From NCBI RefSeq assembly GCF_017348835.2, contig NZ_CP071375.1: a stretch of 64,000 bases of DNA; one strand, written 5' to 3'. Position numbers and translations under genes: made by a program. Position 1 is the stretch's first letter, and every line of letters starts with the position of its first letter. Shown piece after piece: positions 7,820 through 9,751 of this stretch. The stretch comes from Escherichia coli. GTDB lineage: Bacteria; Pseudomonadota; Gammaproteobacteria; Enterobacterales; Enterobacteriaceae. Under the pieces are notes generated by a model. It did not search any database. It saw nothing but the letters and a program-made list of their open reading frames with translations, and was not told the origin of the DNA.

Positions 7820-9751
7820 ATGAGCGAGAAATTAAAGATAGTCTATCGCCCATTACAAGAATTGTCACCGTATGCGCACAACGCCAGGACGCACAGTACT
7901 GAGCAGGTGGCACAACTGGTAGAAAGTATTAAGCAATTCGGCTGGACTAATCCGGTGCTGATTGACGAAAAGGGCGAAATTATTGCGGGTCACGGTCGTG
8001 TTATGGCGGCTGAAATGCTCAAAATGGATTCTGTTCCGGTCATTGTTCTGTCTGGCCTGACGGATGAGCAGAAAAAGGCGTACCGCCTGGCAGATAATCG
8101 CCTGCCGATGAATGCTGGCTGGGATGAAGATCTGTTGCGGATGGAGCTGTCGGACCTAATCAATGCTGATTTTGATGTCTCCCTGACAGGCTTCATCCCG
8201 ACAGAAATTGATGAACTGTTGACGGATGTTTTGCCCGGTACCGGAGCTTTGTGGAAGCGTACAGCCGTCGGATTAACGAATTTCGCCTGGATCAACACAT
8301 CCGGCGATACATATGATATTTACGTTGAGATTGGCAATTATGCGACGAGTGTAAATATCCATTGGGATTGTACTACAAATGCGTCAGTTTCTATTTATAC
8401 CTCGCCAACATATTCAGCGAGTAAGCCTTCCAGCGTTACCGGTGGTGTTGTTTATACGATGTATAGCTCACATCAGAAACCTACACCATCAGATATTGGA
8501 GCGCTGCCAACAACCGGAGGAACAGTTTCAGGTCCGTTGTCTGTTACAGGTGGATTAACTGGTTCATTGAATGGTAATGCAAGTACAGCCACGAAATTGC
8601 AGACGGCAAGATCTATCGGTGGAGTTGTTTTCGACGGTTCTGCAAATATTAACCTTCCAGGTGTAAACACTACGGGTAACCAGAACACCACTGGTAATGC
8701 TGCAACTGCTACAAAACTTCAGACTGCAAGAAAAATATCCGGTGTTCCATTTGATGGTTCTACTGATATCACTTTAACCGCTGCGCATGTTGCCGCTTTC
8801 GCAAGAAGGGCAACAGGGTCATATGCGGATGCTGATGGTGGCGTTCCCTGGAATGCCGAATCAGGCGCTTACAATGTCACCCGCTCTGGCGACAGCTATA
8901 TTCTGGTTAACTTCTATACCGGGGTCGGAAGTTGCCGCACCCTGCAGATGAAGGCACATTACAGAAATAGAGGTCTGTTCTACCGTTCTTCAAGAGACGG
9001 TTATGGTTTTGAGGAAGACTGGGCAGAAGTTTATACCTCGAAAAATCTTCCACCAGAAAGCTACCCAGTCGGCGCACCAATCCCGTGGCCATCAGATACC
9101 GTTCCGTCTGGTTATGCCGTGATGCAGGGGCAGACTTTTGACAAATCTGCTTACCCGAAACTTGCAGCTGCTTATCCGTCAGGCGTGATCCCTGATATGC
9201 GTGGCTGGACGATTAAGGGTAAACCTGCCAGTGGTCGTGCCGTATTGTCTCAGGAACAGGACGGCATTAAATCGCACACCCACAGCGCCAGCGCATCCAG
9301 TACGGATTTGGGGACGAAAACCACATCGTCGTTTGATTACGGCACTAAATCCACGAATAACACTGGTGCGCATACCCATAGTTTAAGTGGCAGCACGAAT
9401 GCAGCTGGTAATCACAGCCATAGAGATGGCCGTCGATTTAACCCCAGTGTTTTTAAAGATACTTATCAATATGGTTATACAAGCTCAGGTCAAAATACCT
9501 GGGGTGTACAAGGCTCAGTAGGTATGTCTACGGGGGCGTTAGCTAATACCAGTACAGATGGTAATCATAGCCACTCACTGTCCGGCACAGCAGCATCTGC
9601 AGGTGCACACGCGCATACTGTCGGTATTGGTGCTCATACGCACTCTGTTGCGATTGGCTCACATGGACACACCATCACCGTTAACGCTGCTGGTAACGCG
9701 GAAAACACCGTCAAAAACATCGCATTTAACTATATTGTGAGGCTTGCATAA
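7820..9751 (+). CDS. Chimeric ORF: ParB-like nuclease N-terminus (YnaK-like) fused to a side-tail-fibre C-terminus (StfR-like)
   Basis: The first ~145 aa ([13 protein letters not shown]...[11 protein letters not shown]) look ParB/sulfiredoxin-like. The rest has tail-fibre repeats ([23 protein letters not shown] / [23 protein letters not shown]) and a His-rich fibre tip ([41 protein letters not shown]). Confidence 0.6.

Follow-up and report, generated by a model that had tools for sequence, protein, structure and literature searches.

The closest described relative of the locus reported here is the cryptic prophage Rac of Escherichia coli K-12 (trkG-ynaK-ydaY-ynaA-lomR-stfR-tfaR), which belongs to the same family, occupies the same ttcA site with the same att core and has the same trkG-ParB-...-stf-tfa backbone. 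Like the prophage in the window (the whole stretch of 64,000 nucleotides of E. coli DNA that was analyzed), it is defective through internal deletions starting inside the ParB gene. In K-12, a deletion of 11.6 kb runs from nt 254 of this gene to ydaY (14965 to 26526 in the coordinates of the intact prophage L013, described below), and a second one, of 8.4 kb, runs from the tape-measure gene to lom (L013 28285 to 36737); a full stfR, a tape-measure fragment and a lomR split by IS5 are kept. K-12 YnaK (87 aa; L002 15378–15641) is the stump of a 263-aa ParB that was left by the deletion to ydaY, and it is for this reason that PGAP, the automatic NCBI annotation pipeline, labels intact 263-aa genes 'ynaK, partial' in some genomes. 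The window differs from K-12 Rac in having lost 24.5 kb in a single deletion, in fusing ParB to Stf in frame, and in carrying sitABCD where K-12 has pinR-ynaE. Other E. coli strains show still other Rac-type junctions.

Microhomology-mediated illegitimate deletion is a general concept in the decay and domestication of prophages, and the window conforms to it in having a join at 3 bp of identity, with lytic functions removed and cargo spared. The fibre part of the fusion is reminiscent of T4 gp37 and of lambdoid Stf/Tfa pairs: over its C-terminal 230 residues it can be aligned to the entire needle domain of the gp37 tip (2XGF), including the HxH repeats, and a Tfa chaperone gene follows the fibre. 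Unlike these systems, the window has a shaft that is cut at residue 589, and a ParB domain replaces the tail-binding N-terminus.

The first-pass annotation of the window had described the ORF at 7820–9751 as a ParB-like N-terminus that runs into a fibre shaft and a His-rich tip, with trkG immediately upstream and no head or tail gene between the two parts. Gene annotation, Pfam domains and matches to solved structures bear out this description. The features of the region are as follows.

6225–7682, + strand: trkG, K+ transporter cargo and native upstream neighbour of ParB (PGAP annotation of the identical record; order in intact relatives)
7769–7792, + strand: terminator-like hairpin with a 10-bp stem and a T-rich tail, between trkG and the chimeric ORF (consensus scan, pattern match only)
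7820–9751, + strand: chimeric ORF, ParB(1–140) + Stf(589–1091), 643 aa, ATG start (ORF listing, translation, domain searches)
7820–8241, + strand: ParB-derived segment, consisting of the ParB/Srx N-terminal domain and a linker to codon 140/141 (identity to the 263-aa ParB)
8239–8245, + strand: crossover, with the exact microhomology TAC (8239–8241) inside an imperfect 7-mer (window compared with left and right parents)
8242–9751, + strand: Stf-derived segment, aa 589–1091 of a 1091-aa side tail fibre (protein and DNA comparison)
9056–9748, + strand: T4 gp37-like receptor-binding tip with HxH (His-rich) repeats (phmmer to 2XGF, E 1e-84, residues 413–643)
9751–10335, + strand: tail-fibre assembly chaperone gene tfa (Pfam Caudo_TAP, E 2e-43)
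10548–13732, − strand: sitDCBA iron/manganese transporter cargo operon, in which sitB is a pseudogene (annotation and alignment to the intact operon)
12759–12768, − strand: sitB deletion junction, about 264 bp lost, 10-bp overlap (alignment to the intact operon)
14092–14134, no strand assigned: attR core of the Rac-type prophage, a ttcA-derived repeat at the right prophage end (match to the K-12 attL/attR core)

In the N-terminal part of the ORF, Pfam places ParB_N (PF02195) at residues 23–90, with 26.9 bits against a curated cut-off of 26.3. The GxxR motif of this domain (here AGHGR) is present within IIAGHGRV at residues 54–61, and residues 7–93 give a weak match to solved Spo0J/ParB structures (E 4e-4). 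For the fibre part, the Pfam matches counted for the Collar and the gp37-type tip were PF07484 (Collar, residues 418–465) and PF12604 (gp37_C, residues 338–407), and Phage_fiber was also detected. Residues 324–418 match the structure of Mu fibre S (8JU3), and the gp37 needle tip aligns end to end with residues 413–643. The ORF thus retains the Collar domain, the gp37-type tip and the downstream Tfa chaperone gene of a lambdoid Stf. Pfam found no tail-attachment domain (phage_tail_N, PF08400) in the 643-aa ORF, and this domain is present in full-length 1091-aa relatives. Also missing is the C-terminal half of the 263-aa YnaK-type ParB (residues 141–263), identity to which ends at residue 142.

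Alignment to intact ParB and Stf proteins, which had been proposed as a check, located the fusion point and showed each half to be 100% identical to its parent. Residues 1–142 match the start of the 263-aa ParB-like protein of the Rac-type phage vB_EcoS-666R9, and residues 141–643 correspond to residues 589–1091 of a 1091-aa Stf, with 503/503 identities (P0024). In DNA comparisons, the match of the ORF to phage ParB genes extends to nt 8245, and that to tail-fibre genes begins at nt 8239; the 7-mer at the crossover reads TACAGGA in ParB and TACCGGA in stf. In a three-way comparison, the left parent reads …GCCCGG TAC AGGAAAT, the right parent …AAGGGAT TAC CGGAGCT, and the window …GCCCGG TAC CGGAGCT. 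The join creates the palindrome CCGGTACCGG. At the TAC crossover, the codon phase is the same in ParB and stf, and the fusion falls at codons 140/141.

The proposal that a deletion had fused two unrelated genes in frame therefore stands, since both halves are separate, complete genes in intact relatives. The fusion had been expected at codons 145–165 (nt 8250–8300); it exists, but at codons 140/141 (nt 8239–8241), about 10–60 nt upstream of that nucleotide range. When compared to L013, the ParB part shows zero nucleotide differences except for the crossover base 8242, and in the stf part, 1–2 of 1,513 nt are not the same as in intact stf genes, which suggests that the event is recent.

L013 is the locus of E. 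coli LSN03-016011/A (NZ_CP035884.1), a near-isogenic intact prophage at ttcA/uspF. It shares with the window the TolA-like genes, lysis genes, trkG, the tfa allele (with an identical protein accession), the sit operon and the uspF-ompN-nifJ flank. Positions 852–8245 of the window are collinear with L013 7739–15137, and positions 8239–12768 with L013 39673–44202 (99.85% identity). Between the two breakpoints, 24,542 bp of L013 are missing from the window, a figure that includes a 711-bp IS200C insertion found in L013 only. The lost genes comprise the C-terminal half of ParB, a TAGT-type (TET-associated) glycosyltransferase gene, a small ORF, terS, terL and portal; the Mu-F-like minor head gene, scaffold, P22-type coat, head-tail connector, tail-tube genes, ydaY and tape measure; and the tail-tip genes M, L, K, I and J, followed by lom and stf codons 1–588. 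The loss of a whole morphogenetic module, postulated from the window alone, is confirmed by this comparison, in which the genes from terS to J are present in L013 only. The position of trkG beside ParB had been read as a further sign of deletion; this argument fails, as trkG-ParB is the native order in intact phages and prophages.

Intact members of the family (LSN03-016011/A; strain 7/2; phage vB_EcoS-666R9, ON470614) are 97.6–99.9% identical to the window in DNA on both sides of the junction, and LSN03-016011/A carries the same cargo (TolA-like genes, trkG, sit). They encode ParB (263 aa) and Stf (1091 aa) separately, with about 22 morphogenetic genes between them, whereas in the window the two are fused. 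In L013 the ParB gene lies at 14712–15503. In intact Rac-type phages, it overlaps a TAGT-family glycosyltransferase gene (PF20691, E 1e-34; L003 20785–21717; L013 15496–16428), and the pair could form a DNA-modification module upstream of the terminase genes. The ST131 strain 7/2 (L012, NZ_CP023820.1 1555000–1603000) carries an apparently complete trkG-ParB-terminase…J-stf late region at the Qin locus (ydfJ), indicating that the module circulates between integration sites.

The window matches the chromosome of the pig isolate E. coli PE164 (NZ_CP114128.1) with 100% identity. The exact junction occurs in 2 of 5,426 complete E. coli genomes, PE164 (China) and F2_81 (Australia), both from pigs and with identical ORFs, and the same 643-aa protein is found on five draft contigs from other projects. 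By comparison, an intact trkG-ParB-TAGT-terS arrangement is present in 855–909 of the 5,426 genomes. The first-pass annotation had set against its reading the case of intact phages that encode the same architecture as one protein; in the best 120 of 8000 scored relatives, both domains are spanned by the identical 643-aa sequence alone, and all others cover 77–78% of the query, in the fibre part only. DNA comparison with phage records likewise returned none that spans the ParB-stf junction. PGAP marks the ParB and fibre pieces as partial pseudogenes, and its 'ynaK' fragment ends too early because the reference, K-12 YnaK, is itself a stump. By its sequence, the fusion allele is young and clonal, and derives from a common phage type that is still intact.

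Positions 1 to about 14,134 of the window are the right part of a Rac-type lambdoid prophage at ttcA, beyond which lie uspF, ompN and nifJ, as in K-12. In the same genome, ttcA-intR-xisR lie just left of the window, so that the Rac-type integration features are all present. In the region left of the window (L015 14140–16070, about 5 kb away), recE' abuts ydaU directly when compared to K-12, and the entire immunity/kil region is missing, from racC to ydaT, including kilR, sieB, racR and ydaS; IS3 sits between rcbA and ralR. At window positions 1–798 and upstream (L001 2406–5799), the anti-phage pair iteA/iteS (ATPase and S8 peptidase) replaces the early-region genes of L013. With all genes from terS to J missing, as well as racR, ydaS and ydaT, the prophage lacks what a functional one would carry, and the earlier view that it is cryptic and non-inducible is well supported, although it rests also on the immunity-region deletion outside the window.

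The same view held that the prophage retains its cargo. This is correct for trkG and the TolA-like genes, but the sit operon is not intact: in sitB (window 12256–12819, − strand), the deletion of about 264 bp has removed Walker A and shifted the reading frame, and the Sit Fe/Mn transporter of this prophage is thus probably inactive. One draft genome carries the chimeric ORF together with a full 275-aa SitB, indicating that the sitB lesion came later than the fusion.

Taken together, we consider it very probable that the ORF at 7820–9751 is the relic of one illegitimate, microhomology-mediated deletion in a ttcA Rac-type lambdoid prophage. The deletion would have run from ParB codon 140/141 to stf codon 588/589 and removed about 24.5 kb, and, with both breakpoints in one codon phase, the remnants would read through as a single 643-aa ORF. 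Slippage, template switching or end joining at TAC could each have produced it. Loss of the morphogenetic module and of the immunity/early region would then have fixed a cryptic prophage that keeps trkG, the TolA-like genes, the anti-phage iteAS and a sit operon that is now broken. If made, the product would be a ParB N-domain joined to the shaft and tip of a fibre with no means of binding a tail, and the ORF is most likely a non-functional pseudogene, because the Stf tail-binding domain is missing and no tail genes are left.

Against a non-functional relic, it can be noted that the ORF is intact and identical in all carriers. An open frame, identical in two complete genomes and with the same protein on five draft contigs, and a tfa chaperone gene directly after it, could be taken to mean that the ParB-fibre protein is bifunctional, native or domesticated, and kept by selection. 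A native fusion protein is rejected, since among the relatives listed only identical copies combine ParB and fibre domains, and we regard selection for such a protein as highly improbable. The fusion lacks the N-terminal tail-attachment domain of Stf and no tail genes remain; joins in frame are to be expected by chance, given the preference of TA crossovers for codon phase 3|1; and the carriers are one young clone, so that sequence identity is uninformative on selection. Pattern scans ahead of the ORF, moreover, returned the terminator-like hairpin at 7769–7792 and no promoter-like site. That the junction is an assembly artefact joining distant phage regions is scarcely credible: apart from the general risk of misassembly in repeated prophage DNA nothing points to it, and the junction recurs in a Chinese and an Australian genome, finished independently of each other, as well as on five draft contigs from other projects.

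A different objection to a single step is that the ParB breakpoint is re-used by many other junctions, which leaves room for two. An earlier deletion at the stf TTACCGG, as in strain ET776 (TAGT-stf), would then have been followed by the loss of about 424 bp between TACAGGA and TACCGGA. ET776 does join L013 15557–61 to 39672–4, which is exactly the stf site of the window, and several other pairs or triples of alleles have one breakpoint in common and the other different. Yet the stf allele of ET776 is another one at the very junction (G instead of A), its prophage background differs as well, the flanks of the window match the intact L013/L007 type almost perfectly, and an L013-type intermediate was not found among the 5,426 genomes. 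We therefore consider two steps unlikely and retain the single deletion as the origin of the ORF.

The left breakpoint of this deletion, …GCCCGGTA^C (window 8239–8241; L013 15131–15133), is common to nine DNA-verified junctions. The related loci with a breakpoint at ParB 140/141 are L005, L016, L017, L019, L021, L066, L068 and L069, and the right partners joined to …GCCCGGTA(C) are as follows.

Window: stf 39674
Strain S3: stf 39650, a different stf allele
Strain D97-1: coat gene 22505
APEC_AN-25: another stf allele
L019: minor head gene 20605
L021: inverted tfa
L066, L068 and L069: right partners not mapped

A protein search with ParB residues 1–140 returned 120 clusters, and each protein of E. 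coli type was scored for the residue at which its sequence parts from that of the 263-aa ParB.

Departure at residue 140: 28 clusters, with 23 different tails
Departure at residue 141: 9 clusters
Departure at residue 142: 8 clusters
Departure at residues 90–139: about 0.5 clusters per codon
Departure at residues 143–200: about 0.4 clusters per codon

The hot spot thus accounts for about 45 protein clusters, with about 35 different tails. The right ends of these tails are spread from +0.36 kb to +29 kb and map to TAGT, terS, terL, minor head, scaffold, coat, tape measure, lom, stf, tfa and sitB. Of the 27 cases that were mapped, 24 have a T directly before the first retained A in the right parent, which places the crossover within TA. 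Junctions at GGTA occur on at least two distinct trkG-ParB haplotypes, and so do not all descend from a single junction.

Some right ends, too, recur with different left ends. Minor head 20605 is joined to left ends 15132, 15415 and 15496; J 33132 to ParB codon 111, 15157 and 15486; stf 39672–4 to 15132 and 15557; and sitB 44467 to ParB codons 141 and 165 and to 44202, the last being the window's own sitB deletion. Both ends of that deletion (L013 44202 and 44467; window 12759–12768) also partner the ParB hot spot in other strains. Pattern scans of metagenomes and IMG/VR yielded few additional junctions. The reverse protein search, for fusions of the form X|ParB(141–263), did not have even full-length ParB among its matches. 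In the literature searched, we found no description of the ParB-stf junction or of the hot spot, and we know of no case in prophage decay in which dozens of alleles re-use one left breakpoint in this nucleotide-precise, one-sided manner.

A number of explanations for the hot spot were considered and set aside. Integrase-mediated deletion does not account for it, the Rac att core TTGTTCAGGTTGTATTGTTCTTTCTT having no similarity to the breakpoints. The ParB site resembles, over 8 nt, what we take to be a gix half-site, but a Pin/Gin-type invertase is rejected because the break does not coincide with a central dinucleotide, the partner sites misfit and the prophage has no pin gene. A hairpin does not explain it either, as the predicted DNA fold at the ParB site is no better than that of shuffled sequence (z = -0.3). 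None of 10 related phage records starts or ends at the site, which speaks against phage genome ends. In addition, the large terminase subunit is T4-type (Terminase_6N/6C), a type associated with headful packaging, and a precise cos site at the ParB breakpoint is therefore not expected. Insertion of a mobile element or of a homing-endonuclease gene at codon 140 is set aside because nothing but additional deletion junctions was seen in the three unmapped tails that were inspected. Selection for in-frame fusions is discounted because in-frame joins are in excess simply as TA dinucleotides mostly span codon boundaries, and because some alleles (APEC_AN-25, ET776) are out of frame. The enrichment of TACCGG at partner sites, which could suggest a nuclease motif, is explained by its likeness to the ParB TACAGG. 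Finally, a single ancestral junction is not compatible with the presence of at least two trkG-ParB haplotypes, and no carrier of the plain ParB|minor-head junction came up when this was probed for.

What characterizes the pattern is that it is one-sided: up to GGTA, the left-hand DNA is preserved to the exact nucleotide, and on the right the loss varies in extent. This suggests a recurrent, defined 3' end at GGTA, left by a nick, by a protected break or by stalling of replication, which would re-prime or be joined at a TA further downstream. A Chi site in trkG, at about 6950, is oriented towards the break, and argues against a free double-strand end processed by RecBCD. We tentatively propose, as a possibility that we hold with less than even confidence, that ParB codon 140/141 (…GCCCGGTA^C) is a recurrent defined DNA end, and that Rac-type prophages decay by polar, one-sided deletions from this fixed point. 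Candidate causes would be a site of phage packaging or nicking, or stalling of replication at a specific nucleotide; nearly any TA downstream may serve for joining or priming of this end, with the ORF of the window as one of about 35 known products.

The ParB-stf fusion is real but ordinary, one more deletion allele of the well-known, decaying Rac-type prophage. It shows that what names of the ynaK kind denote are deletion stumps and, as both parents are still circulating and almost identical to it, it provides a clean, datable example. Its non-trivial aspect is that the left breakpoint belongs to a strong deletion hot spot in ParB, on which the literature searched had not remarked. If this breakpoint has a specific cause, inactivation of these prophages would be directed by a cis-acting site rather than random, and, with intact lysogens making up about 16% of complete genomes, E. 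coli would offer a tractable system for the study of illegitimate recombination.
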